Shown piece by piece: positions 1,960-38,445 of a DNA stretch of 64,000 nt. The DNA is from Kiritimatiellia bacterium. GTDB taxonomy: Bacteria > Verrucomicrobiota > Kiritimatiellia > RFP12 > UBA1067. The translations under genes were made by a program, and so were the position numbers. Under the pieces are notes generated by a model, which was given only the letters and a program-made list of their open reading frames with translations, searched no databases and had not been told where the DNA came from. Location: NCBI GenBank assembly GCA_016284515.1, contig JAEEOY010000290.1:1951-65950 (forward strand). The letters run 5' to 3'. How positions within the stretch are numbered: position 1 is the first letter of the stretch; every line of letters starts with the position of its first letter.

Positions 1960-2031
1960 TTTAGTCAGAAGGGGGGATGCGGTGTGTGCTGCGTCTTGTC
2001 TTCTAACGAAAAAGGGGAAGAGGAGGGGTAT

Positions 2032-8000: not shown

Positions 8001-8940
8001 CGAAGGCGGACTCCCGACGCTTCACGGCAGGCGGGTCACGGTAGTCGACACCGTCTTCGAGAACCTCTACTGCGGCGTTGCGCCGCTGGCGGTGCTCGAC
8101 GGCGCGGTGTACGATCTTGCCGTGACGAACTGCACGTTCTCCGGCAACTCTACGCCGATAGTGTCCGCTCGCGACACCAATGACCCCGCGATGGTCAAGG
8201 ATGCGTACGCGGCGAGCGCGATGTTCCTGCAATGCGGAGACCACCACAAGATGCTCGACGGACAGGACATCGGCTTCCGCTGCGGAACGGTCACGATCGA
8301 CCGCTGCCGCTTCGAGAAGGGGAACGCCAACCACGTCATCGGCTGTGCGTATTCCGCGTGGAATTACACATGGAACGGAAGCGAAAACGTCCAGCAAGTT
8401 CCCGAAGGCGAGCTAGACTCCATCGAAATATCGAACTCTCTGTTTGCGGACTGCGCTTCCGCTGCGTGCACAATCTACGGATACAGCACCGACTTCAGCT
8501 TCCGCAACTGCACGTTCGCCAACCTTCCCGACGGCGGACTTTGCGGACGCGTCATCAAGTCGCGGCTGTACAACTGCGTCGTGACCGAGTGCGGCCCGAT
8601 AAACGCCCATTCGCGCGCCGGCGATATCGTCTGGTGGGAGAATGAAGGCGCAAACGGCACGGCGACGCTTCACCGCACGCTTGTGTGGCACACCGTTGAC
8701 GGCGCGGATGCGACCGACGCGGCGAATGTAACGCGTCCGGACGACGACTGCCTTTCGGTCGATCCGCAGCTTCGCGCTGACTACGTTCCGCTCATCAGCT
8801 CGCCGGTGAAGAACATCGCCGTCGCCGCCGAGGTGCGCGGAGAGTTCGACCTTTCCGGCGGAACTCGCAGAAGGGGCAACGTCGCCGACCTCGGATGCTT
8901 CGAGACGGCCACTGGAGGATTTACCATCACTGTTCGCTGA
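2032..8940 (+). CDS. giant secreted protein: N-terminal poly-glycine (PGII-like) domain plus three tandem right-handed beta-helix (DUF1565/pectate-lyase-fold) modules
   Basis: ATG 2032 follows AGGAGG (2021-2026). Signal-like MGRTMSVLLAAVSTAAMAA. Gly-run domain at ~2140-3030 ends in GGNGGSGCIILRFKY. Three modules open with NPYLTLRKAIAVAEPGDTIKL, HPFKTIESALAFASTGDTLVL and APFKTIALALSCAQPGDTVHL (~3664, 5631, 7570). Each closes with VDIGCRE, VDIGAFE or ADLGCFE. Confidence 0.8.
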   Translation: MGRTMSVLLAAVSTAAMAATYEDDFISLNWGSAVRQEVSDGYVYTLSTAGGAQVTLKRSAYFNRALVVGGGGGGGGVIAGGGGGGGVVEVNGGETLYPANTSWTANIGGGGPGSSNWWRGSRGGNTTLTLDGEHSYIAYGGGGGGGWNAPDPDAFAYYDPAATGGGAGANWRDQRRAPFELTEEAINAGKSAADFQGGYGGAAIGGNGGSSPGGGGGAAYSGGDGIYLVDGANSGKNRAGDGGQGRSSDIRELTDDYFGGGGGGGGGNNCDFAGRGGLGGGGRGTDCNIAEPQSVRNGEDGRGGGGGGGAFSENASLAGGNGGSGCIILRFKYANVPGLIVGANIPESLVSGALSPAFGFHEMSTDDTATLTAATADGYTVTGCIVEEMGADGQWGAGVQHSGATLAYTQSANLTRVTWQYDISQEGPEIVATRSETKIEWMLKDVGRFGSVVTSATMEWSDSDSYPSESTSSESIITSATTVPAKGTIALASAPETLYVRITAQNDAGGESVREFSLQAPTQGARVIFVSPYGDNTNGTGSEANPYLTLRKAIAVAEPGDTIKLLPGVFAVDEETPFPINTDVTIEGSGEASVVDGENAVDNIFVSTGTGTLKNLVLRNSLADAVVASGTDFTVEDVKVEQSRGSFFAAGGFAFVGACHAVVRRCTFEGMRRLGFIGQIGADANVEYAWSLLVQDCVFRDLIVGGASIYTANQLQKEGVHYSGRHTCFNITVEDCLFEGISSYRGADDGNFGDDVLGDAFPAAALNICSGWNHRGYASVSRCRFDRNTAASLFGTQNAGVKDANNPVLGLLVSDCLFTDNSPRIATAGGYNTKMLYRNCTFVNGGIGNYVARDIAGTFQNCVFDNAGPMVNYTGHSWNGAQSIGNAVIGKAAFRNFEAGVAAAVDYDSANVVVGDPLLDDDYVPLPYSPIIDAGDNEGVPSVDLVGNPRTADNNADGTKTVDIGCRESTFWDSPVPTVRVSAPGLLSLVKGGTATFEVSISAIPQGASGPFAVTLDAPDTFVVSPTSFSIAGLGVTQTVTVSVPADAAGSGMLAIGASAEGFAPAEMAVSYDALKLEVAGGTRQFVRAGTDYGISVSLTLEGAVPGSDVAIAAAVVSGNSTVAWSAEGANIIAADAHATAGTLVVSPVAGTSVIRFTTPTGVFEETGTATLDVTVVAGDGRIAVNPVDGDDATAEGTAEHPFKTIESALAFASTGDTLVLAPGMYTASSWPIYPHGVALVGMNGDSPAEVGDVVIDANNTAENLIAYSAADAGLACRIANLTLRASTKAAVSISSADVTVENCDFTQSGANGGEVGGVHVMNDSHVTISGCSFHDMYRMAAVLLQSADTASDDTRSVTVSGCSFADGTYEAAALANFKAYDVSAKFALTVEDCVFERNTTPEGKVQHDAYAAGAILFHANGASYTTLRIARCLFRRNVGGVVLGLEGFNTGNNSANPGPVISDCVFDGNTPRYAMANGYSVRYKYANCTFKGNTTGVYNGRFIDPTFQNCLFVGDGPISGYQTSASGAKGDWANSIGNVTFLGKNLVYDTPYGVSGKITMNAADVIEAEPIMDGYALRPYSPGVDAGDNECVVSTTDFAGNKRVARNTSGASAATVDIGAFECAYGDPTVLSPILPFPGLAPVAIGGSVTIAVTAGPDAEWPVTVDIEYPSGITGPDLVQLTSADPVEVTVTATTAEEGLSRLVFSIEDGGSTVYDLEVVDISVKIAGKKRVHVRTGASVDLPVSMAQDGFVAPETIEFTVGTPSGGSAAQWTGAASIAQGAAASAGALHVTAGQPGVTTIRFSAGVPFVESGSTDFDLEIVAYDGNLYVDSADGSDETGTGLEVAPFKTIALALSCAQPGDTVHLAAGTYDAASGETFPIHPATVAIVGAGADSTTIDAGDSSLFVVEWNGLGTEVSGRVAGVTLAHSTGPAVSVSGSSALLEEVEVVQTASVTNITAGGGVSVGGDSFVEVKGCRFAGFGRRYAICAEGGLPTLHGRRVTVVDTVFENLYCGVAPLAVLDGAVYDLAVTNCTFSGNSTPIVSARDTNDPAMVKDAYAASAMFLQCGDHHKMLDGQDIGFRCGTVTIDRCRFEKGNANHVIGCAYSAWNYTWNGSENVQQVPEGELDSIEISNSLFADCASAACTIYGYSTDFSFRNCTFANLPDGGLCGRVIKSRLYNCVVTECGPINAHSRAGDIVWWENEGANGTATLHRTLVWHTVDGADATDAANVTRPDDDCLSVDPQLRADYVPLISSPVKNIAVAAEVRGEFDLSGGTRRRGNVADLGCFETATGGFTITVR

Positions 8941-18212: not shown

Positions 18213-18258
18213 GCGCCCAAATGGGGGATGTTTCCCGAGCCGCCGCGTGTGGTAAAAT
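18213..18258 (+). promoter_or_regulatory. promoter of PATR giant gene A: conserved 19-mer GCGCCCAAATGGGGGATGT, 21 nt (22 from its ATG), then TGgTAAAAT
   Basis: The 19-mer at 18213-18231 is identical to 23120-23138. Extended -10 at 18250-18258. Confidence 0.55.
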
Positions 18259-18305
18259 GGTGTCGCATAGTTGGCATGGTCCAGCACAAGAAAGGAAAGT
18301 GGTAT

Positions 18306-21300
18306 ATGAAGCTCAAAACATTAGCCATCGCATTTCTCTCGACAGTTGTCTCGCTGTCGTCATTAGTCGCCGATACATTCTGGACTGCCGGGAGCGAGTC
18401 TGAGACGAAATACTGGGACGACGCCGCCAATTGGAACGCCGGCGGCGGAAACTACGTGGTGAACATGAGCGGGAATCCAGAGACGGAGATAAACTTTCGC
18501 ACCCATGGATTTGACTCGTTCGGAACCGGGTTCTGGGTTGAGAACAAGCTTTCCGGCGTCGTCACATTCAAGTCGGAATCCTCGGACTGCGGACTGAACA
18601 TGACGGGCAGTTTGTCCATGCACGTGGGCGGATGGGGCAATCCTGGCGCACTTGTCATAGATGGCGGAACATACCACTTTGCAAACGACCTGCTTGTCGG
18701 ATACGACAGGAATGTTGGGAGCATGACATTGAAGAACGGCCGAGTCGAAGTCGCGTACTGGTTGCCGATGGGTGCTGGTGACAACATTCCCGCCGATCAG
18801 ACATCAGAGATGATCGTTGAAGGTGGCGAACTCATCGTCGGATGGCGAGATGGCGCGTATGCCGACAATGCGAGGATCGAGATACCGCGCACGGACGGAA
18901 AGAAGGCTTCGTTTCTCCTGAAGGGAGGTCTTGTGAGCGTGCATGGTTCTGGCGGACGCTCTCTTTCGATATGCGAGGGCGCCAATACCACCGGCACGTT
19001 CACGATTTCAAACGGCACATTCGTGGCGCGCAGCGAGAATGTCGTCGTAGCAAACGGTAGCGGCTCGACGGGAACGCTGAATCTTCACGGAGGGACTTTC
19101 AAGGCCCCGGCGATCACTGCTGGGAGCGGAACAGCGGTCATCAATTTCGACGGCGGAACGTTCACGCCGACGGCGATAGGCGACGCGCTGCCGGCGAATG
19201 ACAAGCTGACGGTCAACCTTGGCGCACATGGAGGTGTCATCGACGCCAAAATGTCGGCGTCCGTCTCCTCGCCTTTTGTCGGGACCGGTACTCTTTCAAA
19301 ACGCGGTGCTGGACTTGTCACGATCAACGGCACTGTGGCAGACGGCACGGTGAGCGTCGAAGAAGGCGCGGTGGCGATTCCGGAAGGGGCAACTATAAAC
19401 ACGGTGAGGCTTGGCGCTGGCACATCGCTGTACATAAAGGGAGAAAATGCGACGTCGGGGAAGACCGTCGAAGAGCTGAAGGCGTTGGTGAATGTGGAAA
19501 ACTGGGATATTGCGGAGAGCGCATCTGTATCCGCTGTCGGCGAACGCGGCGCCGACGCGGAAACGCCCATCGACACGACATGGATACTCCCTGCCGGCGG
19601 TGCAGGGCTATATGATGATCCGTCGAACTGGTCGCGCGGCGTGCCGACTGCGATAGACAGGGCTGTCTTCGTTTCGGATGCCGAAGTCTGCACATCGGGA
19701 GACAACAACGGACGAAGCATGTCCGGACTTGAGGTGAGGAACGGAGCGACGGTGTGGTTCCACACCATTCAGCAAGGGAATTATCCGCAGTTCAACTTCT
19801 CGTCCATCACCGGAGATGGCACAGTAGGATTCAACCGCTGCGGTTTCGCACCTCTGCAGAACGGAGACGAGCTCGTCATTCCGTCTTCCGTCACCCTGGC
19901 GTTTGCCAACGATACCGCCTCAACGGCGGGCAATGATTCGTGGATCCAGGGTTCTCCTGGATCCGTGGTCGTGAACGGCGATGTGCTAGTTAAAAACTAT
20001 CTTCTGATTTGGACAGGCGTCACCTTCAACGGGACTGTTGTCATGGAGAACGGTTCACGCATCAACGGCAACGGTGCGGCTGTGGTGCTTGGGGAAAACT
20101 TCCGACTTGTCGTGCCCGAAGGGAGCACGGCTACGGTGGACGGAAGCTGGAATAATAACACGTCTGTGTTCAACAAAGTGGGAGCCGGTACTCTTGTTGC
20201 AAATCATACTGGCTACGGCAATCTCGTAATGAAAGAGGGCGTCGCAAGGCTGCAGTCGAGCGAGGGCCCATGGACGTACTTCACTTTCCAGGGCGGGACG
20301 CTGCAGTTCGCATACGCCATGAACTGGTTCGACGAACTAGTCAACCGAATCAACAGCTCAACCGTACACACTGAAGCAATCAAGCTCGACACGCAGCTCG
20401 ACGTCACGCTCAACACGGCGCTCGGCAATAACAATACGACGACCAACGGATTCGTCAAGCTTGGTCCGAACACGCTGACGCTCACAAGTCAGCCCGCTTA
20501 CACTGGCGACACCGAAGTGCGGGAGGGCGTACTGGAGATTCCTGTTGGCGCGACTCTCCCGGGCGAACTTTCCGTGGGCGAAGGCGCTAAGATCAAGCTG
20601 ACGGTCAATCCGGTCGTTTGGATGGCGGGATACACTGGTACATTGTTTGAATACGGCACGCTGGCTGAGGGGCTTGTTCTCGGCGTGGGCAACATTGAGG
20701 TTGCCGGACTCTCTGGAGAGATCGGCATTGCATTCGACTTCACAGAGTCGGGCAAGGTCAAGGCGACGGTGACCGGTGAACAGCTTGTCTGGAAGGGTGC
20801 CGATCAAACAAACTGGGTGGGCGAGTACACCTGGAAGAGCTCCGCCGACGGTTCGGACAAGCTATATGCGGCGGGATACGACGTCGTCTTCAACGCGTCA
20901 GAAATCGGCGAGGGAGTCCTCGCCACGAATACTGTTGTCGTGAACCAAGATGTCGCGCCGGGATATGTATTTGCAGCAGTTCCTGCCGGTAAGGGTTATC
21001 GGCTCGCGGGGGAGAGTGTAGAGGCGTCAGGGCTGACCAAGTCAGGCGCAGGCGTGTTCATCCTCGCAAACGAGCAGTTCCACTCAAGCGGCGCGACGAC
21101 GGTGTCCGAAGGCGAACTGGTGCTCGAAGGTTCTACATTCAGCGCGGGAGCGGACATCTCTAACTCCGGCGTTATACGCGCATCCGGAGACGCTGTGTCG
21201 ACGATTACCCGCCATGTGACGGGCGAGGGATCGGTTGCAATCGACGAGAATGCCACGCTTTGCCTAGCGGATCAGGACCTGGACCAAGACGTGACGGGAA

Positions 21301-22316
21301 CGGGCACGCTCCTCGTGACGAACGGCTGGCTGACACTCGTCCGGTTGCGGAGTCTGTCGAATTTCCGCGGGAATATTCGCCTTGCCCAAGGTGGAACTGT
21401 TTACGAGAAGACGGAGTTCAACAACGATCTCCGTAACGGCAATGTTTATCCGCTCGGGCAGAACTCCACGATAGTCTTCGCGGGCGGAACGCTCGATGGA
21501 TTCTACTTAAACAACAACACTGTCATCACCTCGCCTTTCGTGATGGAGAACGGAACGACGAGCCGTCTCAACAACACGCACCAGCGCAGCGGCGCCGGAA
21601 ATAACATGTGGGTTTATTCGACGCTCTCGGGCGGCGGCAACCTGCGGTTCCAGTCGAACGGGCGGACCACGTATCTGTACGGCGATGCATCGGCCTTCAC
21701 TGGGGAAATAGAGCTGGTGGGCGGGCTGTTCCGTTTCCAGAATGAAGTCGCGGGCGGAGCGAACTCGACATGGAAATTCGCGTCTGCGCAGACATATGAC
21801 ATCTATAACGCCTGGAACACTACGATTCATTTCGGCGCGCTGAATGCGCCGGAGTCCGGCACGCAGATATGGGTCAACAATGGCGGCGCCATTGTCGAGA
21901 TCGGCAACAAGGCCGATAGTGTAATCAACGGTTACTTCGGCGGTTCCGAGTTCACGCTCAGCAAGGTCGGCAGCACGTCGCTTGTCGTCAACGGAAACTC
22001 GCCGAGCGCAAACGTTGTCGTTAGTGCGGGTGCGTTCGGCGGAACGGGCACGTTCAAGTCTCTGAACTTCTCCATCGGGACGAAGGTAGTGTTCGGCGAT
22101 CTTTCGGACAAGAAGCTCGTGTACGACGGACCGAAGTCGCTCTCCGAGCCGGTATGGGCGAAGGAGCCGGACATTGTGCAGCCGGAAGGTATCCGCGGAC
22201 GCTGGAAGCTCGGTGTGCGGAAGGATTCGGTCCAGCCCGAGGAAGGCGATGCCTATGACGTGTGGACCCTTACGGCGACATATTCGAAGCCTGGGTTCGC
22301 GCTTTCCCTGCGTTGA
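18306..22316 (+). CDS. giant exported protein with autotransporter-associated beta-strand (PATR) repeats, paralog A
   Basis: Track ORF starts at 18228. ATG 18306 yields the signal peptide MKLKTLAIAFLSTVVSLSSLVA. PATR-type units KLGPNTLTLTSQPAYTGDTEVREGVLEI and KSGAGVFILANEQFHSSGATTVSEGELVL. Ends in ..KPGFALSLR. Confidence 0.8.
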   Translation: MKLKTLAIAFLSTVVSLSSLVADTFWTAGSESETKYWDDAANWNAGGGNYVVNMSGNPETEINFRTHGFDSFGTGFWVENKLSGVVTFKSESSDCGLNMTGSLSMHVGGWGNPGALVIDGGTYHFANDLLVGYDRNVGSMTLKNGRVEVAYWLPMGAGDNIPADQTSEMIVEGGELIVGWRDGAYADNARIEIPRTDGKKASFLLKGGLVSVHGSGGRSLSICEGANTTGTFTISNGTFVARSENVVVANGSGSTGTLNLHGGTFKAPAITAGSGTAVINFDGGTFTPTAIGDALPANDKLTVNLGAHGGVIDAKMSASVSSPFVGTGTLSKRGAGLVTINGTVADGTVSVEEGAVAIPEGATINTVRLGAGTSLYIKGENATSGKTVEELKALVNVENWDIAESASVSAVGERGADAETPIDTTWILPAGGAGLYDDPSNWSRGVPTAIDRAVFVSDAEVCTSGDNNGRSMSGLEVRNGATVWFHTIQQGNYPQFNFSSITGDGTVGFNRCGFAPLQNGDELVIPSSVTLAFANDTASTAGNDSWIQGSPGSVVVNGDVLVKNYLLIWTGVTFNGTVVMENGSRINGNGAAVVLGENFRLVVPEGSTATVDGSWNNNTSVFNKVGAGTLVANHTGYGNLVMKEGVARLQSSEGPWTYFTFQGGTLQFAYAMNWFDELVNRINSSTVHTEAIKLDTQLDVTLNTALGNNNTTTNGFVKLGPNTLTLTSQPAYTGDTEVREGVLEIPVGATLPGELSVGEGAKIKLTVNPVVWMAGYTGTLFEYGTLAEGLVLGVGNIEVAGLSGEIGIAFDFTESGKVKATVTGEQLVWKGADQTNWVGEYTWKSSADGSDKLYAAGYDVVFNASEIGEGVLATNTVVVNQDVAPGYVFAAVPAGKGYRLAGESVEASGLTKSGAGVFILANEQFHSSGATTVSEGELVLEGSTFSAGADISNSGVIRASGDAVSTITRHVTGEGSVAIDENATLCLADQDLDQDVTGTGTLLVTNGWLTLVRLRSLSNFRGNIRLAQGGTVYEKTEFNNDLRNGNVYPLGQNSTIVFAGGTLDGFYLNNNTVITSPFVMENGTTSRLNNTHQRSGAGNNMWVYSTLSGGGNLRFQSNGRTTYLYGDASAFTGEIELVGGLFRFQNEVAGGANSTWKFASAQTYDIYNAWNTTIHFGALNAPESGTQIWVNNGGAIVEIGNKADSVINGYFGGSEFTLSKVGSTSLVVNGNSPSANVVVSAGAFGGTGTFKSLNFSIGTKVVFGDLSDKKLVYDGPKSLSEPVWAKEPDIVQPEGIRGRWKLGVRKDSVQPEEGDAYDVWTLTATYSKPGFALSLR

Positions 22317-22442: not shown

Positions 22443-23045
22443 ATGGCATGGCGACTTGCGAAAAGAAGATTAAGGTGCCCACCACGGGGCTGTGTGACTT
22501 CCCAGGGCGGCTACCTCACGCTTTCCGAGATAATCGACGAGAGCATGTTCCGTCTCGGCATACCGAACAACGAAATCGCGAACTCCCTTTCCGAGGGCTA
22601 TGTCGCGGCACTGCTCGGCAGCGGCATGACGGACTGGACCGAGCAGCTCGCCGAGTCGCGCGCCGGGCTTCGTGCGAAGGGCGTTGAGACGCTTCTGAAG
22701 AAGAACCTAAAGTCTGCTTTCGCGGCGGTCCCGCACGAGTGGAAGATCGAGAGCGAGAGGGAGGCGAAGCGCTACTTCCTTTTGTTCATGAAGCTGATCG
22801 GCTCGGAGATCTCCGGCGAGCGGCAGAGCGCTCGCGGAAGGGCGGACGCGATACTTAAGGACAAGAGCGGCGTCTACGTCTTCGAGTTCAAGTACGGCAA
22901 GACGGCCCAAGAGGCGCTAGCACAGGCCCGGACGAAGGAATACGCGGGCCCCTGGCTCGACGGAGCGCCGCCTGTTTTCTACGTGGGCGTAAACTACGAC
23001 CCCGCGAAGCGCGGAATCGACGACCCGCTGGTCGAGCCGGCATAA
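22443..23045 (+). pseudogene. internally deleted AAA-ATPase / PD-(D/E)XK (PDDEXK_9-like) gene remnant
   Basis: The C-terminal 200 aa keep GYLT..LGIPNNEI and ..RADAILKDKSGVYVFEFKYGK (nuclease core). An N-terminal-like MATCEKKIKVPTTGLCDF is read from ATG 22448 in another frame. The ~300-aa ATPase domain is absent. Confidence 0.5.
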
Positions 23046-23198: not shown

Positions 23199-26100
23199 AT
23201 GAGCATTAACGCTAAATCCGTTAAAGTTTTGGCGACGGCAGCATTCGCCATTCCTATGTTCGTATTTGCGGGGCACGACTGGGTGGGTGAAACGCTTGAC
23301 GCCACTGAAAATCTCTATTTGACCGGCACTGCTGCAAACTGGACGCCGGAATCGGTTCCGGAAAGCGATTATGTGCGTTTCATGAAGGGCAACACGACGG
23401 CAACTTTCAACAATATGATAACCCCGACAGACTATTTTTGGGTCGGGTCGACGTCAGGCACCTTCACCGATACGGAAGGCAATCCGCTTTGGTGCGTCTG
23501 GCAGTCTTTGGATGATAGCGCCGACTGCGGCATCAATGCAGACTGCAAGCTGGCGGTGTGCGATGCGGTCGACCAGCGTGGAAACCTCTGGATCAAGAGC
23601 GGGTCGTATACATTCAACAGCCTTGACTGGGGCAAGGGGCTTGGACCAGCAAAAATCAAGTTGACCGGCGGCACCCTGAAGTCAAAAGGTTTTACGAATT
23701 TCTCGGGCAAGCCGGATGCGACTTTGGAAATAGATGGCGGCACTTTCGACACTGACGCCGAGTTTGTGATAGGAACGACGGAGGGAAGTACTGGCATTGT
23801 CCATCAGACAGGCGGAACATTTACCCCGAAGAAGTTCTGGGTGGGGTCACGCTATGAGTACGGTCAAAAGGCCTTTGGCCGGTATGTCATGACAGGCGGT
23901 TCGATTACGACGGACAGCGGTGAGGATTTTGTTGTTGGCGGACAGGACTACTCTACCGGCGTTGTTGAGGTCGTCAGCGGCACAATAAACGTCGGAGGCA
24001 ATCTCTTGGTGCCATGGGGCGGGAATTCCACGGGCCGCATGACGGTCGGCGATGGCTCGGTGATTGAGTGCGGCAATTTCAGACTGAGTGACAACAATGG
24101 GGGAGATGGCGAATATACGCAGAACGGCGGGAAGATGACGGTGAGGTCTGCGGCGACGATAGCTAACACTGCTAGCCGGGCCGTGGCCACGATCAAAGGC
24201 GGAGAGCTCTTGGCGAGCGGGAATATCAATGTCGCTACGGCTGCTGGCGGCGACGGAACACTTGTATTAACGGGCGGAACATTGAGTTCTGGGGCATGGG
24301 TCTGCATCGGCGCAGGCGGAAACGGATACTATGTGCAGAAAGGCGGGACATTTAACATTACCCAGGCGTTCATCTCGGGTCAGGGCTCGAACAACTCAGC
24401 AGCATCATACAGCATCATTTCAAACGGAACGCTGAATGCAAACCAGCTTTTTATCGCAGAGAACAGCACCTCAAGCGACATGACTATCGAGGGCGGAACG
24501 GTCGCAATTTCGAGCACGGCCTACATTTCCAAGAATTCATCAGAAGGCAGAGGTGTGTTGACGATGAACGGCGGACGCCTCACAATCGGCGCCGAGACGT
24601 ATATTGCAAACGCCGATAATTCAACTGCGCTAGTCACCCTGAACGGCGGCGACCTAGAGACAACCGCGGCAAAGAAGTTCTATGTCGGCAAGGGCGTGGG
24701 TTCAAAAGGCGAAATTGTGGTGGACGGAGGACACCTTAAGGTGAACAACGAAATTCACCTTGCGCCGTCGTCGGGATCGACAGGCATTGTCCATGTGACG
24801 AGCGGAACGATCACCAATACGAGCTGGCTGGTGCTTGGCATAAACGATGCCTATCATGAATCGACGTTGCGCATTGACGGCGGCGAGGTGTACAACCAAG
24901 GCAATGTTACACTCGGATCTTCGATGGGCAACGGTTCCAAAGACAATCTTGTGGTCGCGGGGACGGGTATCCTTCGTACTACGGGAAACATCTACATCGC
25001 TGAGGGCCACACGCACGATGCCTCAAATCCTGCGGAGGCAACGGTCACTGTGGATGGCGGGCTCGTGGACAATTCCGCTGGCGAGACACAGTTTTTCATG
25101 GGCAACAGCATCGCGGGGACTACGGGGACACTCAACCTCAACGGTGGTGAGTATATAACGAAGCAGATACAGTATGTGAATGGAGCTGGCACGGCCAAGG
25201 TCAATTTCGGAGGAGGAAAGCTCAAGGCTGCTTCAGGGTCCGATTCATACATAATCTGGGCCAACGGCTCAGCCCATATGTCCGCATCACTAGTGGAGGA
25301 CACTACTTCGACGATTGACACCTCTTCGCAGAACCTGACGATTAATGTTCCGATAGACGGAGCTGGAAATCTTGTCGTCACCGGAGGTGGATCGCTCGCG
25401 CTTGGTGCCGGAATGACCTATACAGGAACCACTGCAGTTGAAGCAGGGACAACCCTTTCCCTGAGCGACGCATCGGCAACCACATCGCGACTGATACTCA
25501 GGGGCGGCAGCGTCTCGGCTCCGGCGAACTTCAGCGTCGCCGAGGTGGAACTAGCTTCTGGTGGCGAGGTCTCGCTTCCGTCTTGGTACACGACGAGCAT
25601 GAAGCTGATCATAAGCGGCAATACGACGCTTGTTGTGCCGCAGGGTACGGAGCTGGGCGATGTCGAGTTCAGGGACAACGGCAAGATCGTATACACGCTT
25701 TCGACCTACACGGCAGGCGAGACGGCTAGTGTCGCCACAATTGGAACGGTTACTTATCCTGAAAGCGAGACAATCGCCGAACATATCTACATCTCGGTAG
25801 ACGGCGTTCGCATGGCGACGGTAGCGGATACGAACGGAGCCCTTACTGCAGCGCCGCGCGAGGTAGAGTGGATCGGCAACGGCACTGTTGATTACTCCGA
25901 CGGCACGCAGTGGCAGGGTGGATCGCTTACGGGCTTTGACATTGCAGTCCTTGGCAAGGATGCAACAGTTTCAAGCGCGCACCCAGCAATGAAACTGACT
26001 GGTGGAGCGACCGTTGCAGTCGCGCAGGAAGTGACAATCGACGCACTTGCCATCGGTGCCGGCGGCGGTTCTATCAATACGGGCAGCTACGGCGTGACGA

Positions 26101-29100
26101 TTGTGAATGTAAAGAGCGTTGAAGGGACTCTTGGTTTCTCCGGTACTGGTACTGCGACGATAAGCGCGGCACCTGCTGCGTCGGTTGGGCTTGCTTTGTC
26201 CGGCACTGTGGTCGCGACAGTCCCGTATGCGACTAAGTTCAGCTCGCTGTCGTTCGCCGCAAGAAATCTTCTGTTTGTCGATGTGTCGGGATTGAGCGAG
26301 GCAACGACACTTGAGACGCCATGTCCCATCTCTTTGCCTCAGGGCTATTCCGATCCGAACTGGTTTATCGCGCCCAAAGGCAAACGTGTCGTCTTTGACT
26401 ACAATTATGACAACGGAATCAAGCTTACGTCAATGCATCCTGCAGCCGAGGGCGAGAGCGTGGTGGCCGTGTTCCTCGGCTCCGGCAGCGGCACGGGTGA
26501 GTGGCGTACGAGCGGACATTGGGTGCTGGGAACAGCGCCAACGAGTGTCGATACAGCGGTGTTGCCCTTCAGCGGAACAGTCAACATGATAAGCGGCGGC
26601 AACCAGACGGCAAGCAACGTGGTGATCAAAACGTCGCATGTAAAGTTCAACAGCACCAACGGCTGGCCGAGCTTTGGCGCCGAGGAAATCATCGGCATTG
26701 AAGGCGCGACACTTGAACTCCAGACCGTGGGTCTCAAGCCCGCCTCGGGAAAGACGATGAAGGTATATGTGGACTGCGACTGTGTGGCCACCAACCCCGA
26801 CCAGGATACCTGGTTCGACGGCAACGATGCCGACAGCCGCCTCGAAATGCACGGCAACATCTGCGCCACCAACTCCCCCTTCCGCCTGAACGGCCATACC
26901 GACATCTACGGCAAACTCATTGCAAACCGTCCCCTTGGCGACGACAACTACATCTCCGGCGGCGTCACCTTCCAGCCCGGTTCGGAACTGATAATCGGTG
27001 AAAACGGCGAAGTGAAAATCACCGGCTCGAACACGTTCCAGGGCAACGTCACCGTCAACGGCGTGCTGCAAAACCGCTCCAACGGCACAACCTTCTCCGC
27101 CGGGACGGTTCTGAGCGGCTCGGGGACGCTGGACTTCTCCCACAGCGCGAATTTCGCGGCGAATATTTCGGGCGCTTTGACTATCAACCTCACCGGCTTT
27201 GGCAAGAATGGCGAGGGCCAGACGTATTTCAGCGGCGATAATAGCGCGTTCACCGGGTATTTGAATTCGTCCAGCCCCTACCACAACCCCTACTTCGCCG
27301 CTGCCTCGGCCGGTAGCGCATCGGCGCGCTTCAACTTCGTGGGCGACGTGCGCACAAAGTTCGCCGAGGGCGTCATCAAATTCGGCGAGGCGAAATTCAC
27401 GAAAAACGACTGGTGCGTGTGCTACATAGACGACGCCACGGGCCCTGTCGTATTCGAGATCGGCGCGCTTTCCACTGGCGAGGACACGATCGGCGCGGGC
27501 TACTCCTTCGGCTCCAACAAAGACAAGCTCACCATCCGTAAGGTCGGCACGGGGCTTCTTTCCACCTGGGGCGACCAGTATCAGCACCTCGAAGTAAAGT
27601 CCGGCACCGTTGCTATGAAAGACAATCACGGGCCATCTAGCACCTTCATTTGGACTGGCGGAACGCTGCGCTTCGACGCGGCGTACAGCTGGGATCCGAC
27701 CCCGCGCTTCGACTGCGTAAATTCCACTGTCGTCGATATTGATACTGCCGGTCACGACTTCACATGGGGAACGGCCTTGACGGATAATGTCGGCATTACA
27801 AAGCGTGGCGACGGCGTTCTTACGCTTACTGGTGCGCACACATACACGGGCGATACGACTGTACTTGGCGGAACGCTCGTGCTCCCGCTGAACACGGGCG
27901 TAGGCACTCTTGCAGTCGCAGATGGCGCGACGCTTGCCGTCGACGGCAGTTCGCTTGAAGTGCTCGAAAATACGGCTTATGAAATCCTGTCGGGTTCTAC
28001 GGATTCTGCGTCGATTGCAAGGATACGGGTCACCAATTCGGACTGGGATTGGACCACATCGTCCGCCGACGGCAAGATCAGCGCCACGGCGGAGGCCTGG
28101 GGAGATGTGCCGAACGTGTGGGTCGGCGGAGAAGAAGGGTACTGGAAGGATGGCGTGAACTGGAGCCGTAACATAGCTCCACTGGCGACGCATACTGCCA
28201 AGTTCACATCGAGCGCGCTTGTATATCTCGACGGAGACAAGAGCATCGCTACGCTCGACGCGGAAACTGGCGCTCGCGTGCTTTTCAAGTCTGCAAGCGG
28301 CGACAGGACCCTCCGACCCAAGACCATGACCGGATCAGGTACCGTCGCACTGCATCACGTGGGCATAATTCCGTCTGTAGCCATGACCATCCCCGATACG
28401 CTGACTCTCGAGATCGTGAAGGTCAACGACGACAACACAATCGACAGTTGGCTTGAGGGAGATACGGCAGAAACGGCGCTTACAATCAACGCTCCGATTG
28501 TCGGCGACGGCTATATAATCTTTCGCGACCACGTTGTCCTCGCTGGCGACAACTCCGGCTTCACGGGCAAAGTGCTGAGGGACGCGAATGGCACGCTTAC
28601 GTTCAAAGCCACTAAAAGCGGTTCTGCCGCCGCCGCGTGGGAATTCCAGGGCGACATAAACACATCAGCCATAACAGAGGGAACGCTGAGCTTCGGCTCG
28701 CTTACCCTTAGCGGACAGAAGTGCTGGTATCAGAATTCCAGCAGCTCCATGACGATTGAAATCGGGGCACTCGGACAGGACATGCAGTTCGGCGGGAATT
28801 TCTTCTTCGGAGCAGAATACTACGACACTGGCACGAATCCCGAAAACGTGACGCTGAAGGTCGTCGGCGGGAAATTGACCTATGCGAGCTACGGCATGCG
28901 CAAGATAGAGGTTGTCGCCGGTGAAATGGTTCTCGCCGCGCCGACGCACGGCGATGGACACTGGACGAGCTACCGCGACAACCGCGCAGGATACCAGATA
29001 GACTCGCTGGTCGTTCGAAGCGGCGCAGCGCTCTCTGGCAGCAATGGCGACCAAAAGATACTATCGGCGACGTTCGGCAATGGGTCGATACTCAAGACGA

Positions 29101-29444
29101 CGCTCAAGAAGACGTCCGAGACTGTCGGCGAGACGACTGTGACGACATACACAGCTTCTCCGGTGCCTGCGGTTGAGGGAACGGTTGACGTCTCGGGAAT
29201 CCATGTCCAGGTGGCAAACCCCGAGTTCGTAAACGACGACATTATGTCCGGGGAAGACGAGGCTGCAAAGTCGGCGCTTGCATCGACGGTGTTCCCGCTT
29301 CTTAAGGCTGGTGCGGTCTCCGGCAAGGCGACGCTTGACTCTGAACTTACGGGGCTCGGGACGAAAGTCTGGAGGACGTGCAATTCGGCGACTTCTCTGG
29401 GGCTTTGTTGCCGCAACGCAAAGTTCGTTTTCCTAGTCAGGTGA
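23199..29444 (+). CDS. giant exported protein with PATR repeats, paralog B (2081 aa)
   Basis: Signal peptide MSINAKSVKVLATAAFAIPMFVFA. PATR units KRGDGVLTLTGAHTYTGDTTVLGGTLVL and GNLVVTGGGSLALGAGMTYTGTTAVEAGTTLSL. Many G-rich beta-helix-like repeats. Ends in ..NAKFVFLVR. Confidence 0.8.
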   Translation: MSINAKSVKVLATAAFAIPMFVFAGHDWVGETLDATENLYLTGTAANWTPESVPESDYVRFMKGNTTATFNNMITPTDYFWVGSTSGTFTDTEGNPLWCVWQSLDDSADCGINADCKLAVCDAVDQRGNLWIKSGSYTFNSLDWGKGLGPAKIKLTGGTLKSKGFTNFSGKPDATLEIDGGTFDTDAEFVIGTTEGSTGIVHQTGGTFTPKKFWVGSRYEYGQKAFGRYVMTGGSITTDSGEDFVVGGQDYSTGVVEVVSGTINVGGNLLVPWGGNSTGRMTVGDGSVIECGNFRLSDNNGGDGEYTQNGGKMTVRSAATIANTASRAVATIKGGELLASGNINVATAAGGDGTLVLTGGTLSSGAWVCIGAGGNGYYVQKGGTFNITQAFISGQGSNNSAASYSIISNGTLNANQLFIAENSTSSDMTIEGGTVAISSTAYISKNSSEGRGVLTMNGGRLTIGAETYIANADNSTALVTLNGGDLETTAAKKFYVGKGVGSKGEIVVDGGHLKVNNEIHLAPSSGSTGIVHVTSGTITNTSWLVLGINDAYHESTLRIDGGEVYNQGNVTLGSSMGNGSKDNLVVAGTGILRTTGNIYIAEGHTHDASNPAEATVTVDGGLVDNSAGETQFFMGNSIAGTTGTLNLNGGEYITKQIQYVNGAGTAKVNFGGGKLKAASGSDSYIIWANGSAHMSASLVEDTTSTIDTSSQNLTINVPIDGAGNLVVTGGGSLALGAGMTYTGTTAVEAGTTLSLSDASATTSRLILRGGSVSAPANFSVAEVELASGGEVSLPSWYTTSMKLIISGNTTLVVPQGTELGDVEFRDNGKIVYTLSTYTAGETASVATIGTVTYPESETIAEHIYISVDGVRMATVADTNGALTAAPREVEWIGNGTVDYSDGTQWQGGSLTGFDIAVLGKDATVSSAHPAMKLTGGATVAVAQEVTIDALAIGAGGGSINTGSYGVTIVNVKSVEGTLGFSGTGTATISAAPAASVGLALSGTVVATVPYATKFSSLSFAARNLLFVDVSGLSEATTLETPCPISLPQGYSDPNWFIAPKGKRVVFDYNYDNGIKLTSMHPAAEGESVVAVFLGSGSGTGEWRTSGHWVLGTAPTSVDTAVLPFSGTVNMISGGNQTASNVVIKTSHVKFNSTNGWPSFGAEEIIGIEGATLELQTVGLKPASGKTMKVYVDCDCVATNPDQDTWFDGNDADSRLEMHGNICATNSPFRLNGHTDIYGKLIANRPLGDDNYISGGVTFQPGSELIIGENGEVKITGSNTFQGNVTVNGVLQNRSNGTTFSAGTVLSGSGTLDFSHSANFAANISGALTINLTGFGKNGEGQTYFSGDNSAFTGYLNSSSPYHNPYFAAASAGSASARFNFVGDVRTKFAEGVIKFGEAKFTKNDWCVCYIDDATGPVVFEIGALSTGEDTIGAGYSFGSNKDKLTIRKVGTGLLSTWGDQYQHLEVKSGTVAMKDNHGPSSTFIWTGGTLRFDAAYSWDPTPRFDCVNSTVVDIDTAGHDFTWGTALTDNVGITKRGDGVLTLTGAHTYTGDTTVLGGTLVLPLNTGVGTLAVADGATLAVDGSSLEVLENTAYEILSGSTDSASIARIRVTNSDWDWTTSSADGKISATAEAWGDVPNVWVGGEEGYWKDGVNWSRNIAPLATHTAKFTSSALVYLDGDKSIATLDAETGARVLFKSASGDRTLRPKTMTGSGTVALHHVGIIPSVAMTIPDTLTLEIVKVNDDNTIDSWLEGDTAETALTINAPIVGDGYIIFRDHVVLAGDNSGFTGKVLRDANGTLTFKATKSGSAAAAWEFQGDINTSAITEGTLSFGSLTLSGQKCWYQNSSSSMTIEIGALGQDMQFGGNFFFGAEYYDTGTNPENVTLKVVGGKLTYASYGMRKIEVVAGEMVLAAPTHGDGHWTSYRDNRAGYQIDSLVVRSGAALSGSNGDQKILSATFGNGSILKTTLKKTSETVGETTVTTYTASPVPAVEGTVDVSGIHVQVANPEFVNDDIMSGEDEAAKSALASTVFPLLKAGAVSGKATLDSELTGLGTKVWRTCNSATSLGLCCRNAKFVFLVR

Positions 29445-29541: not shown

Positions 29542-29550
29542 TCAGGTGTG

Positions 29551-31626
29551 ATGACTTTGCGAGCGACAACGGCTGCCATCTTGCTGGCCGCAGGCCTTTC
29601 CGCCTATGGCGAGAAGGCCTATGTCTTTTCGTACTTCAACGACATTCCGTTCGGAGGCCGCCGCGGAGAGGCGGCGGGGCTTAGGCTCGCGACGTCGCCG
29701 GATGCGAAGCGCTGGACGGTCGTGAACGAGGGGCGGCCGGTGCTTGTTCCCGAAGTCGGCAAGGATCGGCTCATGCGCGATCCGTCCATCTGCCGCGGAC
29801 CGGACGGCACCTTCCACCTCGTGTGGACGCTCAGCTGGTATTCGAATTCCATCGGGTACGCCTCCTCTCGCGACCTGATACACTGGTCCGAGCAGCGCGA
29901 AATACCGGTCATGGAGGGTATCCCGGAGACGCGCAACTGCTGGGCTCCCGAGGTCACGTACAACCCAGACGACGGGCTCTTCTACGTCTACTGGTCTTCG
30001 ACCGTCACAGGAAGGCATACTCCGATTCCCGACATGCACAGAAAGGAAGCCGGGCTCAACCACCGCACCTACCTCTCGACTACGCGCGACTTCACGGTGT
30101 TCTCCCCTCCGAGACTCTGGTTCAACCCCGACTTCAGCACTATCGACGCCTTCGCCCTGCGCGATCCGAAGGACGGCAGCTGGATTCTCTTCGCCAAGAA
30201 CGAGAACCACACGCCGGTGCAGAAGAACATCGTTGTCGCGTTCTCTGAGAGCCTTGCGGACGGATTCCACGAGCCGGTGTCGGGTCCGATAACGGACCAT
30301 ATCACCGAGGGCCCCACCGCGTTCTTCATCGGCGACGACCTGTATCTCTTCTACGAGAACTACCGCAGCCACTTCTACGGCGCGATGGTGAGCAGGGACC
30401 GCGGCAGGACTTGGGCGGACGTGACGGCGGAGTTTGAATTCCCGCGCGACATCAGGCACGGCACGGTCTTCGAGGTTGACGCCGGAATCGCCGCCTCGCT
30501 GCACCGGCCCGGACGCTTCGGGCATGAAGAGGCGGCGGGCAAGCCAGCCGTTGCCGTATCCGACATGACGATGCTCAGCCTCAAGATGTCGGCGGAGAAG
30601 ATGAACGGACTCGGCGAGCGCATCCGCTTCACGGGCGAGGTGAAGGACGTGGTGCGGGGTGCGGACACCGTGCAGATGGTTCTCGACGACTGGCATGGTT
30701 CGTTTGTGGCGACGATTCCGCTGCCGGCCCGCTCGAAGGTGCCGCGGGAATGGGGCGTCGGAGCGCGCCTCTGCGTCTGCGGCACGCTCTCGTTCCGCTA
30801 TCCGGAGTGCGACGACTTTCGCATCGCCGTCGCCAAGCGCGACGACGTGCAGGTGCTTCGCGCTCCCGCCTGGTGGACTCCGGTACGCCTTGCCGCCGCA
30901 ATCACGCTTGTGGCGCTCCTTTTCCTCGCGATACTCGGCTGGGCGCTCCTGCTGCGCCACCAGAAGGCGGCCGAACTGAAGGTGCACGATGCAGTTCAGA
31001 AGGAGCGGCTGCGTCTCTCCAGCGACCTGCACGACGGCTACCAGCAGCTCCTCGCGGGGTGCATGTTCCGCCTCACCGCCGCGATGACGCTCGGCGAGAA
31101 GCTGAGGAACGGAGGAAGCCCCGCGCTGTGGCGCAAGGTGGACGAGCAGTTCGACGGACTCCGCTCCTCGCTTACGCACGCGCAGGACGAGCTGCGCGCG
31201 GCGCTCTGGACCATGAAGGAGGAGGCGGAGGGCCCGGCAGCCATCGGCGATCTCTTCCGCTACGCGGCGTCGAGGCTTCCGCAGTGGGAGGGAATCGTCT
31301 CCTTCGAGACGGAGGGCGAGGAGTCGCCGATCTCCCGCCGCTATGCTGGCGCGCTGCTGATGATCCTGCAGGAGGCGGTCGGGAATGCGCTCCGGCACGG
31401 AAGGGCGAAGCACGTGAAGGTGCGCGTCGTCTTCGGCAGGAAGGGGCTCGCGATGATCGTCAAGGACGACGGATGCGGCTTCGACGTGGCGGCTTCCGGC
31501 GGGGCGCCTGGAGTGCACCTCGGGCTCAAGAGCATGCAGTCGCGAGCGGAGAACATCGGCGGCAGGTTCGCGGTGCGTTCCGCGCCTGGGAGCGGAACTG
31601 AAGTAAAAGTAGTGCTGGAGGCGTAA
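29551..31626 (+). CDS. sensor histidine kinase with extracytoplasmic GH43-like five-bladed propeller domain (HisKA_3 + HATPase_c)
   Basis: Signal-like N-terminus. GH43-type motifs LMRDPSI, WAPEVTY, TIDAFALRDPKDGSW and ITEGPTAFF. TM segment VRLAAAITLVALLFLAILGWALLL. H-box SSDLHDGYQQLL. ATPase motifs GNALRHG and DDGCGF..GLKSM. Confidence 0.8.
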   Translation: MTLRATTAAILLAAGLSAYGEKAYVFSYFNDIPFGGRRGEAAGLRLATSPDAKRWTVVNEGRPVLVPEVGKDRLMRDPSICRGPDGTFHLVWTLSWYSNSIGYASSRDLIHWSEQREIPVMEGIPETRNCWAPEVTYNPDDGLFYVYWSSTVTGRHTPIPDMHRKEAGLNHRTYLSTTRDFTVFSPPRLWFNPDFSTIDAFALRDPKDGSWILFAKNENHTPVQKNIVVAFSESLADGFHEPVSGPITDHITEGPTAFFIGDDLYLFYENYRSHFYGAMVSRDRGRTWADVTAEFEFPRDIRHGTVFEVDAGIAASLHRPGRFGHEEAAGKPAVAVSDMTMLSLKMSAEKMNGLGERIRFTGEVKDVVRGADTVQMVLDDWHGSFVATIPLPARSKVPREWGVGARLCVCGTLSFRYPECDDFRIAVAKRDDVQVLRAPAWWTPVRLAAAITLVALLFLAILGWALLLRHQKAAELKVHDAVQKERLRLSSDLHDGYQQLLAGCMFRLTAAMTLGEKLRNGGSPALWRKVDEQFDGLRSSLTHAQDELRAALWTMKEEAEGPAAIGDLFRYAASRLPQWEGIVSFETEGEESPISRRYAGALLMILQEAVGNALRHGRAKHVKVRVVFGRKGLAMIVKDDGCGFDVAASGGAPGVHLGLKSMQSRAENIGGRFAVRSAPGSGTEVKVVLEA

Positions 31627-31627
31627 A

Positions 31628-32236
31628 ATGATAAAGGTAATGATAGTGGACGACCATCCGGTCGTGAGGAACGGACTCGAGGCCATGCTCTCGGTCGAGG
31701 AGGACATGGAGGTCGTCGCGGCGGTCGAAGGCGGCGACGCGGCGGTCGCGTGGTGCGCGGAGAACGCGCGGAACCTCCCGGACGTGGTCGTTGCCGACGT
31801 GCATATGCCAAAGGGGGACGGATTCGGCATGCTGTCCGCGCTGAGGAACGCCCACCACGGTGTCCGCGTGCTGCTTCTCGCCGGGATGCCGCTGAAGGAC
31901 GAGGAGACGCGTGCGAGGGAGGACGGAGCGCGCGGGTATCTTCCGAAGAGCCTCGACGGACGCGAGCTGGTCAAGTTCATACGGAGGATCGCGAAGACGG
32001 ATTCCGGCTTCGAGGCCAACGCCTATGAGCAGAACACGGGCGTACTGTCCGACAAGGAGCTGACGGTCCTGCAGTACGCGAGCGAGGGGAAGACGCGCGA
32101 CGAGATAGCCGTGATAGTCGGCATCAGCCCCGAGACAGTGAAGACCCACCTGAAGCACATCATGGAGAAGTTGAACACTGTGAACACCGCGGCGTCCGTT
32201 GCGCGCGGCTTCGAACTCGGCCTTCTGCGCGCATAA
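31628..32236 (+). CDS. response regulator, NarL/LuxR family (REC + HTH_LuxR)
   Basis: MIKVMIVDDHPVVRNGL..VVVADVHMP (receiver domain) and LSDKELTVLQYASEGKTRDEIAVIVGISPETVKTHLKHIMEKL (LuxR HTH). Starts 1 nt after the kinase stop. Confidence 0.9.
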   Translation: MIKVMIVDDHPVVRNGLEAMLSVEEDMEVVAAVEGGDAAVAWCAENARNLPDVVVADVHMPKGDGFGMLSALRNAHHGVRVLLLAGMPLKDEETRAREDGARGYLPKSLDGRELVKFIRRIAKTDSGFEANAYEQNTGVLSDKELTVLQYASEGKTRDEIAVIVGISPETVKTHLKHIMEKLNTVNTAASVARGFELGLLRA

Positions 32237-32306: not shown

Positions 32307-32415
32307 GAGCGAGAGAGCCTGTTAAGCGGGCTTCAGCGAGGGATTTTGCTTCAAAGATGGCGATTGTTGAAAGTTAAGAAAACCATACGCCCCCCATGGG
32401 GGGCGGCAGTCTCGG

Positions 32416-38001: not shown

Positions 38002-38445
38002 ATGAAAAAGACAATTTTTGCATTAGGTTTGATGGCCGCACTTGTGGCTAAAGCAGACTACCTTTATTGGATGGTGGATGATGCCGCGTCTAGTGACTAC
38101 AACTGGACTTCTGCGACGATCTATCAGGATACATCTCCTTTGGCGAGTGCGACATCCGATGACTTTGATGTTATTGGATATAGTACGGCCTCGCTAAATC
38201 CAGGATATGATGTGGCAACCTACTACATTGAGCTGTATAATGGGAGTACTCCTGTGGCAAAAGCTTCGCTGGGTTATAATGACATCAAGAACAATATTTT
38301 CACGGACAACTCTATGGGGATTCCCACAAGAATGCCGTTTGTTGCTCCTGCAGGTTCCTTCCAGGCGGTTCCTGAGCCGACGAGTGGGCTGTTGTTCCTC
38401 GTGGGTGGAATGCTTCTCGGGCTGCGGCGCAAGCGCCGCGTCTGA
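38002..38445 (+). CDS. small exported PEP-CTERM protein (P4)
   Basis: Signal peptide MKKTIFALGLMAALVAKA. C-terminal VPEPTSGLLFLVGGMLLGLRRKRRV (38368-38442) is the PEP motif, a TM helix and a basic tail, i.e. an exosortase sorting signal. Confidence 0.85.
   Translation: MKKTIFALGLMAALVAKADYLYWMVDDAASSDYNWTSATIYQDTSPLASATSDDFDVIGYSTASLNPGYDVATYYIELYNGSTPVAKASLGYNDIKNNIFTDNSMGIPTRMPFVAPAGSFQAVPEPTSGLLFLVGGMLLGLRRKRRV

Follow-up and report, generated by a model that had tools for sequence, protein, structure and literature searches.

An arginine-ending heptapeptide at the C-termini of exported Kiritimatiellae proteins as a probable docking or sorting label

In a 64,000-nucleotide stretch (hereafter, the window) from the genome of a Kiritimatiellia bacterium, four exported proteins end in similar seven-residue tails, the last residue of which is arginine. 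We observe that this tail is a protein-level feature locked to the very C-terminus, that it is found on exported proteins only, irrespective of their fold, that it is conserved among orthologues, and that its flavour differs jointly between lineages. It matches no described sorting signal and, judging from the sequence patterns, most likely serves as an address or a docking label for an envelope component. The analysed genome is a metagenome-assembled genome (MAG) of 3.86 Mb (61.6% G+C, 292 contigs), and the window is situated on its contig C264.

The four tails, all on the forward strand, are GFTITVR (positions 8917-8937, stop codon 8938-8940), GFALSLR (22293-22313, stop codon 22314-22316), KFVFLVR (29421-29441, stop codon 29442-29444) and KFSIRLR (56159-56179, stop codon 56180-56182); they had been listed in a preliminary description of the window, and translation of the respective open reading frames (ORFs) confirmed all of them. 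The first tail closes a beta-helix surface protein, P0001 (ORF 1984-8940; 2302-2318 aa, probable start at 2032, MGRTMSV), which comprises a glycine-rich domain, three beta-helix/DUF1565 blocks and a choice-of-anchor Q domain and has the C-terminal end LGCFETATGGFTITVR. The next two belong to PATR-repeat proteins, one of 1340-1362 aa (ORF 18228-22316, probable start at 18276 or 18306, C-terminal end TATYSKPGFALSLR) and one of 2081 aa with a PF12951 match (ORF 23199-29444, C-terminal end CCRNAKFVFLVR). The fourth carrier is a small exported jelly-roll protein of 170 aa (ORF 55586-56182, probable start at 55670), ending in VENKKFSIRLR. Sec-type signal peptides are present on all four proteins (MGRTMSVLLAAVSTAAMAA, MKLKTLAIAFLSTVVSLSSLVA, MSINAKSVKVLATAAFAIPMFVFA and MSRLKSYLFAPAALLCALAMPLSLLA), so that their earlier assignment to the exported proteins holds. 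Pfam and NCBIfam scans of the four recognised the upstream modules, and the tails were not covered by any model.

Gene calling in the whole assembly, by a codon-usage model with gap filling, yielded 3019 genes. The pattern F-x-h-x-h-R (h, a hydrophobic residue) occurs 403 times inside proteins, which corresponds to 1.02 occurrences expected at C-termini, and 31 were observed (Poisson P = 8.5e-35). Its K-ending version was found at C-termini once, and the registers moved by one or two residues from the end gave 1 and 3 occurrences. In the list of all x-h-x-h-R ends, L and M replace F at position -6 (the last residue being -1), and a 14-residue position matrix converged on 47 proteins (50 at a looser cut-off), with a bimodal distribution of scores and a null expectation, estimated on internal windows, of 0.2-0.4 proteins. 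Thus, a chance origin of the enrichment is excluded, and the initial impression that four such tails are more than a coincidence was correct.

Among the 47 proteins, R is found at position -1 in all 47, no residue ever following it; position -2 is I, L or V in 44 proteins, position -4 is I (24) or V (18), position -6 is F (25), L (14) or M (8), position -7 is G in 37, and a basic or proline-rich turn occupies positions -10 to -8. The consensus in this genome hence is G-[F/L/M]-x-[I/V]-x-[I/L/V]-R-stop. The phenylalanine-based pattern proposed initially thus described a real tail, although the restriction to F at -6 was wrong: with F, L or M at this position and the frequent G at -7, the family becomes approximately twice as large. 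A hold-out matrix trained without the contig of the window assigns 9.6-17.6 bits to the four window tails (GFTITVR, 10.5 bits; KFVFLVR, 9.6 bits), and at most -12.9 bits to all other proteins of the window. Two looser variants suggested previously, FNTFTIK of the GH30 protein and FKVSTIK of the protein P2, score -15.9 and -16.3 and do not belong to the family, the former being the last strand of the Glyco_hydro_30C beta-sandwich.

If the tail were a mark of exported proteins, as had been proposed, it should be enriched among proteins with signal peptides. The 5' end is intact in 37 tail genes; 34 of these satisfy the signal-peptide heuristic, and the remaining three look exported by eye, whereas the heuristic is passed by 24% of the whole proteome (odds ratio 34, Fisher P = 2e-17). 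The carriers tend to be large, with the median length of 874 aa versus 307 aa for all genes, and the tail is present on approximately 1.6% of all proteins and approximately 7% of the exported proteins of the genome. As the tails use all six arginine codons, four glycine codons and all three stop codons, and the 60 bases downstream of the tail genes are unrelated (mean pairwise identity 25%), the selection acts at the protein level. The same two observations rule out a DNA repeat or hairpin as a donor of the tail.

The tail is retained in homologues of the small, the 1362-aa and the beta-helix proteins, orthologues preserving it at identities as low as 26-42%, which settles the question of orthologue conservation raised in the preliminary description. 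Of 120 homologues of the small protein (56-99% identical), 112 end in h-x-h-x-h-R; in those ending in R or K (n = 115), we observe F at -6 (113), I at -4 (110), L, I or V at -2 (112) and R at -1 (112), position -5 being taken by T, F, S, L, I, N, V or Y, and position -3 mostly by R or K. In named rumen MAGs, 12 out of 12 intact copies of the small protein keep the tail. Orthologues of the 1362-aa protein at 98, 96, 56, 55 and 42% identity end in GFALSLR, GFALFLR, GFAITVR, GFSVRLR and GFKISIR, respectively, and the homologues found for the beta-helix protein, with identities as low as 24-35%, in GFAITVR, GFIVTVR, GLLVIIR, GLLLLVR, GLILFVR, GTLIFLK, GTIFFLR and GTVFTLE.

The conserved stretch does not extend upstream. 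In the last 110 residues of 40 tail proteins the mean column identity is 14%, the terminal R is the sole invariant column, and no common Pfam family is found even at E <= 1; hence a shared C-terminal domain is ruled out, and what these proteins have in common is confined to the last 7-8 residues. Unrelated modules precede the tail, such as a beta-helix with choice-of-anchor Q, PATR repeats, a glycine-rich domain or a small jelly roll. In nine proteins of the genome, the choice-of-anchor Q end motif D[IV]G[CA][YFA]E is followed by 4-8 residues and then by the tail. P0001, assigned to the choice-of-anchor Q family by its NF041518 score (49 bits, with the cut-off at 25), carries such a module end, DLGCFE, at 8887..8904 (forward strand), four residues ahead of GFTITVR. 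The NCBIfam name "choice-of-anchor" reflects the fact that different C-terminal sorting signals come after such domains in different lineages, and hence the tail is located where an anchor would be expected.

The distribution of the tail was assessed using stop-anchored DNA patterns with reversed patterns as a control. The pattern G-[FLMI]-x-[IVM]-x-h-R-stop had 33 hits versus 3 for the control in this genome, 118 versus 22 in 12 other genomes of the same GTDB family, 80 versus 58 in other families of the order, and a ratio of about 1:1 in the rest of the class and the phylum. The apparent restriction of the tail to one family proved to be an artefact of this first pattern, as sister lineages use another flavour, GT-hhhh-R. 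The pattern G-T-h-h-h-h-R-stop, which has hardly any noise, yielded 94 hits versus 2 for the control in the 12 family genomes, and approximately 33 versus approximately 45 in approximately 201 genomes from other Verrucomicrobiota classes. By genome or family, there were 15 hits in G023, which belongs to a sister family of the same order, 5-7 in family f10, 27 in G294, 8 in G376, 5 in G166, and 0-1 in each of the 15 family f11 genomes. ORFs sampled without bias from G028 (family f11, 228 kb) and G080 (the family of the window, 332 kb) contained no tail. Thus, the tag is patchy within the class Kiritimatiellae, and the 201 genomes analysed from other classes of Verrucomicrobiota lack it. A scan of named genomes with the alignment of the small protein found carriers among rumen MAGs only, none of them cultured.

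The flavours differ between lineages in many proteins at once. Choice-of-anchor Q proteins of G023 end in GTLLLMR, GTLLLLR, GTLFLLR, GTLLLVR, GTLLFLR, GTMLFLR, GAVLMLR and GSVLILR. Limiting the comparison to proteins selected by the Q domain (n = 8 in this genome, n = 9 in G023), we find F, L, M or V at position -6 in 8/8 versus T in 7/9 (Fisher P = 4e-5 and 0.002), and I or V at position -4 in 8/8 versus L or F in 9/9 (Fisher P = 4e-5). Such a joint shift across unrelated proteins is not predicted by a general folding rule; it would be expected if the tag co-evolved with a single reader, and it points to one shared reader. The earlier suggestion of a lineage-specific sorting or anchoring tag is therefore upheld as regards lineage specificity, both by the flavours and by the phyletic scans, and the sorting or anchoring role is what we infer from these patterns; all the refuting conditions listed in the preliminary description were checked, and none of them spoke against the idea.

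Other C-terminal ends are seen as well. On exported proteins of this genome we count approximately 50 arginine tails, approximately 27 FYRV-type modules and four PEP-CTERM ends. The FYRV-type module, [FY][FY][KRQ][IV]x[IV] followed by a few polar residues, closes approximately 27 giant proteins here (e.g. C6:3544, C232:39628 and C171:6905) and is also seen in L092-L104; its last strand, G-F-Y-R-V-x-V, resembles the tail. The giant proteins of G028 and G080 (L106-L145) close with the module [FY][FY][KR][IV]x[IV], the dominant end in tail-free Kiritimatiellae. Beyond the order, what comes after the Q domain in other families is a short hydrophilic end, an FYRV-type domain of 90-200 residues, or, in G092, ALPWLMLLL[E/D/P]. 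In the latter genome, from another family of the class, six giant proteins (L090-L091) end in GWLR(G/N/S)(T/Q)ALPWLMLLL[E/D/P], located approximately 100 residues past the choice-of-anchor Q domain; these ends and that of a protein from G326 (L029), DIGAFEYEPAPPQGTLLIIE, may be further short hydrophobic tail flavours with an acidic last residue. The eight tails of G376 (GTMFIIR and close variants, such as GTLFIIR and GTMFIFR) lie in nearly identical DNA, GGCACGATGTTCATYATCCGGTAA; unlike the tails of the window's genome with their diverse codons, they may lie in a family of paralogues amplified recently, or in a segment that is repeated.

We then have to consider whether the tail is a known signal. 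No NCBIfam sorting-domain model matched the four window proteins. PEP-CTERM signals comprise the PEP motif, a helix of approximately 20 residues and an Arg/Lys cluster, none of which is found in the tails, and the same genome encodes four genuine PEP-CTERM ends, one in the window (38002-38445) and three others, of the form ..VPEPTSGLL..RRKRRV. The tail shares with the PEP-CTERM/exosortase system (and with the related tripartite signals LPXTG, GlyGly-CTERM and PGF-CTERM) the occurrence on many unrelated Sec-exported proteins per genome, the lineage-specific flavours, the place after choice-of-anchor modules and the basic last residue, but it lacks the signature motif, the transmembrane helix and the basic cluster, and seven residues cannot span a membrane. 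Outer-membrane barrel proteins of this genome, among them members of the FadL, BBP2, DUF481 and DUF3034 families, have F, W or Y as their last residue (VRYEF, LRAKF, VGYDF, VELKF). The beta-signal of outer-membrane proteins, read by BamA/BamD, is, like the tail, a strand of similar length with alternating hydrophobic residues at the extreme C-terminus, but its end is aromatic and closes a barrel, whereas the tail ends in R, and no barrel domain was found in the carriers (Pfam and NCBIfam scans of the four window proteins, Pfam scans of 40 C-terminal segments). Hence the distinction from both PEP-CTERM and the beta-signal, drawn in the preliminary description, is justified. Type I secretion signals, which are uncleaved and occur on RTX-type proteins lacking an N-terminal signal peptide, do not fit either, as all intact tail proteins have such peptides.

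The T9SS (type IX secretion system) C-terminal domain (PF18962/TIGR04183 or TIGR04131) is similar to the tail in that its end is a beta-strand containing a basic residue that is conserved, and in that it serves large glycan-degrading or adhesin cargo. The last strand of this domain carries a conserved Lys, and removal of two terminal residues of RgpB blocks export (PMC11285876). A database protein, P0136 (3948 aa), which is a distant homologue of P0001, ends in the T9SS Por_Secre_tail (PF18962), with KLMLVK in GIYFVRMVSGEFISTQKLMLVK; here a passenger of this type is joined to another anchor in place of the tail. The T9SS signal, however, is an Ig-like domain of 70-100 residues that tolerates C-terminal extension (PMC11285876), whereas the tail comprises 7-8 shared residues, and its R is always the last one; this difference suggests that the free carboxylate is probably a part of what is read. 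Por_Secre_tail had no match in the window proteins P0001-P0004 or in the 40 C-terminal segments of 110 aa at E <= 1, and SprA_N (PF14349) had none in eight tail-bearing genomes, but also none in 14 control genomes. Kiritimatiellae are outside the Fibrobacteres-Chlorobi-Bacteroidetes (FCB) group, and the T9SS is described as confined to Bacteroidota/FCB in two reports (PMC11611037, PMC12398890).

By form, the PilC/PilY1 plug is also close to the tail. In these proteins a C-terminal plug of 12 residues is necessary and sufficient for localization at the tip, via beta-strand augmentation (bioRxiv 10.64898/2026.09.18.752573). Like the tail, it is a very short C-terminal strand, approximately 1% of a very large protein with a signal peptide, with a sequence varying between lineages, and it is disordered when modelled alone; the modelled tail of P0001 is likewise of low confidence. 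On the other hand, a genome carries the plug on one or two proteins, where it adjoins a PilY1 beta-propeller, whereas the tail is found on approximately 50 cargoes of many architectures; Pfam scans of the four window proteins showed beta-helix, PATR and glycine-rich domains and no PilY1-type propeller (IPR008707). To summarize, the tail fails the defining features of PEP-CTERM, the T9SS C-terminal domain, the beta-signal and the PilC/PilY1 plug; by analogy, it is most like PEP-CTERM or the T9SS domain in function, and most like the PilC/PilY1 plug or the T9SS last strand in form. Neither the literature combining Kiritimatiellae with sorting or secretion nor that on choice-of-anchor domains yielded a paper describing the tag, and no family model was found.

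We thus favour, with a probability of roughly 0.6, the interpretation of the heptapeptide G-[F/L/M/T]-x-[I/V/L]-x-[I/L/V]-R-COOH as a modular tag that is recognised at the C-terminus of Sec-exported proteins for their docking or sorting. If those alternatives below that also invoke a specific reader are counted in, we infer that a sorting or docking function is highly probable. Kiritimatiellae would then put the tag on mostly very large, glycan-handling or adhesin-like Sec-exported proteins; after the Sec export, the tail would form or offer a short beta-strand, whose hydrophobic face and terminal Arg with its free carboxylate would dock, by beta-strand augmentation, on one common envelope reader, which could be a protein of the outer membrane or a subunit of a filament or tip. 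By docking, the tail would bring the cargo to the cell surface or retain it at that place, a role akin to those of PEP-CTERM, the T9SS domains and the PilC/PilY1 plug.

Structure predictions give a divided picture. The AlphaFold2 model of the small protein (68 sequences) is a ten-strand sandwich with the predicted local distance difference test (pLDDT) score of 85-90 in the fold, where the tail is the last strand and forms a hairpin with the preceding one (pLDDT approximately 86); Foldseek found only weak galectin/LamG-like jelly-roll matches to it. In the model of the last 330 residues of P0001 (10 sequences), the solenoid is modelled reasonably, and the pLDDT is 33-42 over the last approximately 40 residues, the tail among them, which is compatible with a tail folding on a partner. 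Hence the modelled tail is strand-like, integral in one context and unplaced in the other.

Several observations weigh against the recognition tag. Given its confidently modelled position, the tail of the small protein could be purely structural, and the low confidence for P0001, obtained from only 10 sequences, is weak evidence. Gene neighbourhoods of the tail genes revealed no reader, the recurrent neighbours being two-component systems (NarL-type regulators and histidine kinases), glycoside hydrolases and LacI/AraC-like regulators. None of seven outer-membrane barrels, unknown or FadL-like, co-varies with the tail across 12 tail-positive and 12 tail-negative genomes; indeed, nearly all seven are present in the tail-negative G080. 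In addition, the gene calls and the signal-peptide calls are heuristics built for this analysis, and all tail carriers found are uncultured MAGs.

If no reader existed, the tail could be a structural end-cap, that is, the last edge strand with a gatekeeper Arg, closing a beta-sandwich or solenoid and preventing edge-to-edge aggregation. The integral last strand of the small protein, the hairpin-like arrangement of a strand, a basic turn and the tail in many tail proteins, and the fruitless searches for a reader are all in line with this possibility. It would not explain, however, why the same seven residues close unrelated folds and also come after the Q module and a linker of 4-8 residues, why the tail is always at the exact C-terminus, or why only some Kiritimatiellae lineages have it, proteins of the same fold types having different ends elsewhere; and, as mentioned above, it does not predict the joint shift of the consensus. 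Hence we regard the end-cap as rather unlikely. The exact C-terminal position could also reflect a stability code, the tail shielding exported proteins from a tail-specific periplasmic protease or marking them for it; indeed, the tail-specific proteases Prc/Tsp and DegS read C-terminal residues. Yet a seven-residue pattern with G at -7 and a fixed alternation is far more specific than the known protease determinants, and both the restriction to large surface-type proteins and the place right after choice-of-anchor modules would be left unexplained, making the probability of such a code very slight.

The remaining alternatives retain a reader and specify it. Two of them are special cases of the recognition tag. 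The tail might be a plug of the PilC/PilY1 type that completes the sheet of a minor (pseudo)pilin, for display at a filament tip or for hand-over to type II secretion. The published plug, a short C-terminal strand of variable sequence that acts by beta-augmentation and belongs to a very large non-pilin protein exported by Sec, provides a precedent, and the genome encodes approximately 12 prepilin-like proteins in several clusters as candidate partners. At the same time, these approximately 12 genes are confronted with approximately 50 different cargoes, the window proteins have no PilY1 beta-propeller, and the neighbourhood survey showed no co-localization of tail genes with pilin genes, so that docking on pilins is improbable. 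Mimicry of the BamA/Omp85 beta-signal, with the tail pairing with the lateral-gate strand of BamA or a paralogue and either tethering a non-barrel cargo to the outer membrane or exporting it via Omp85, similarly to split autotransporters or two-partner systems, would agree with the short amphipathic C-terminal strand, the G at -7, the alternating hydrophobic residues, and the fact that many carriers are PATR passenger proteins without a barrel of their own. As genuine barrels here have aromatic ends, while the tail has R in 47/47 cases, and since GTLLLLR of the sister family is not amphipathic, we consider such mimicry quite improbable. Finally, the tail could be a remnant of, or a strand convergent with, the last T9SS strand; a distant translocon of T9SS type would then read it, and a sortase-like protease would cut it off. 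In favour of this are the conserved basic residue of the T9SS strand together with the effect of the two-residue RgpB truncation (PMC11285876), the KLMLVK end of P0136 inside PF18962, and a G-x-Y strand, a basic turn and the tail in some tail proteins, similar to strands 6-7 of the C-terminal domain. The absence of Por_Secre_tail matches in the four proteins and the 40 segments, that of SprA_N in the tail-bearing genomes (with the controls equally silent), the confinement of the T9SS to Bacteroidota/FCB, so far as those reports describe it, and the fact that T9SS ends are extendable, whereas the tail is never extended, make this origin very improbable.

Turning to the neighbouring genes, the window resembles a glycan-utilisation locus, encoding GH30, an alginate-lyase-like protein, and, at 29548-32236, a histidine kinase with a periplasmic match to GH43 / BT_3657-like arabinosidase, paired with a NarL-type response regulator. 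Such kinase-NarL pairs are found at 7-8 further loci of the genome and occur 8-9 times within three genes of tail-protein genes; they have the appearance of sensors for glycans that control the tagged surface proteins. The gene at 8963-13855 encodes an exported protein of 1630 aa with an NHL repeat and an FlgD-Ig-like domain, ending in RLVKFEF, and its two paralogues (C106:33212 and C248:16) each adjoin tail-protein genes. Between the two giant PATR-repeat genes there is a gene of the PD-(D/E)XK nuclease family (PDDEXK_9; 22443-23045), and just after the two-component pair, at 32396-33664, a weak integrase-core (rve) match below the Pfam cut-off; together, they hint at a recombinationally active surface-protein locus. 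Within an ATGA sequence (55670-55673), the probable start codon of the gene for the small tail protein, ATG at 55670, and the stop codon of the upstream gene (54870-55673) overlap, as would be expected under translational coupling in a three-gene cassette.

For each of the C-terminal sorting signals LPXTG, PEP-CTERM, the T9SS C-terminal domain and the beta-signal, pursuit of the signal brought a dedicated envelope machine to light. Tentatively, one might go further and suppose that Kiritimatiellae possess an undescribed route of surface display or outer-membrane export, addressed by a free linear seven-residue strand ending in Arg. Its reader would co-evolve with the tag, which would explain the flavours G-F-x-I-x-L-R and G-T-L-L-L-L-R, and possibly L-L-I-I-E, and the entire surface proteome with which these bacteria of the rumen and gut forage for glycans would be under the control of this route; the tail would then be the shortest general sorting signal known in diderms. 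The tagged proteins are giant adhesin-like, lectin-like and polysaccharide-lyase-like ones that probably mediate foraging on fibre and mucin, in a lineage of bacteria abundant in the rumen and gut but uncultured. For this lineage, the tag would provide a simple rule for predicting the surface proteome, a handle for finding the reader, and, owing to the lineage-specific flavours, a clean natural experiment in the co-evolution of a tag and its reader. If the reader indeed is a general machine, such as Omp85 or a filament tip, beta-augmentation by a short plug would be extended from one pilus protein to a whole secretome.

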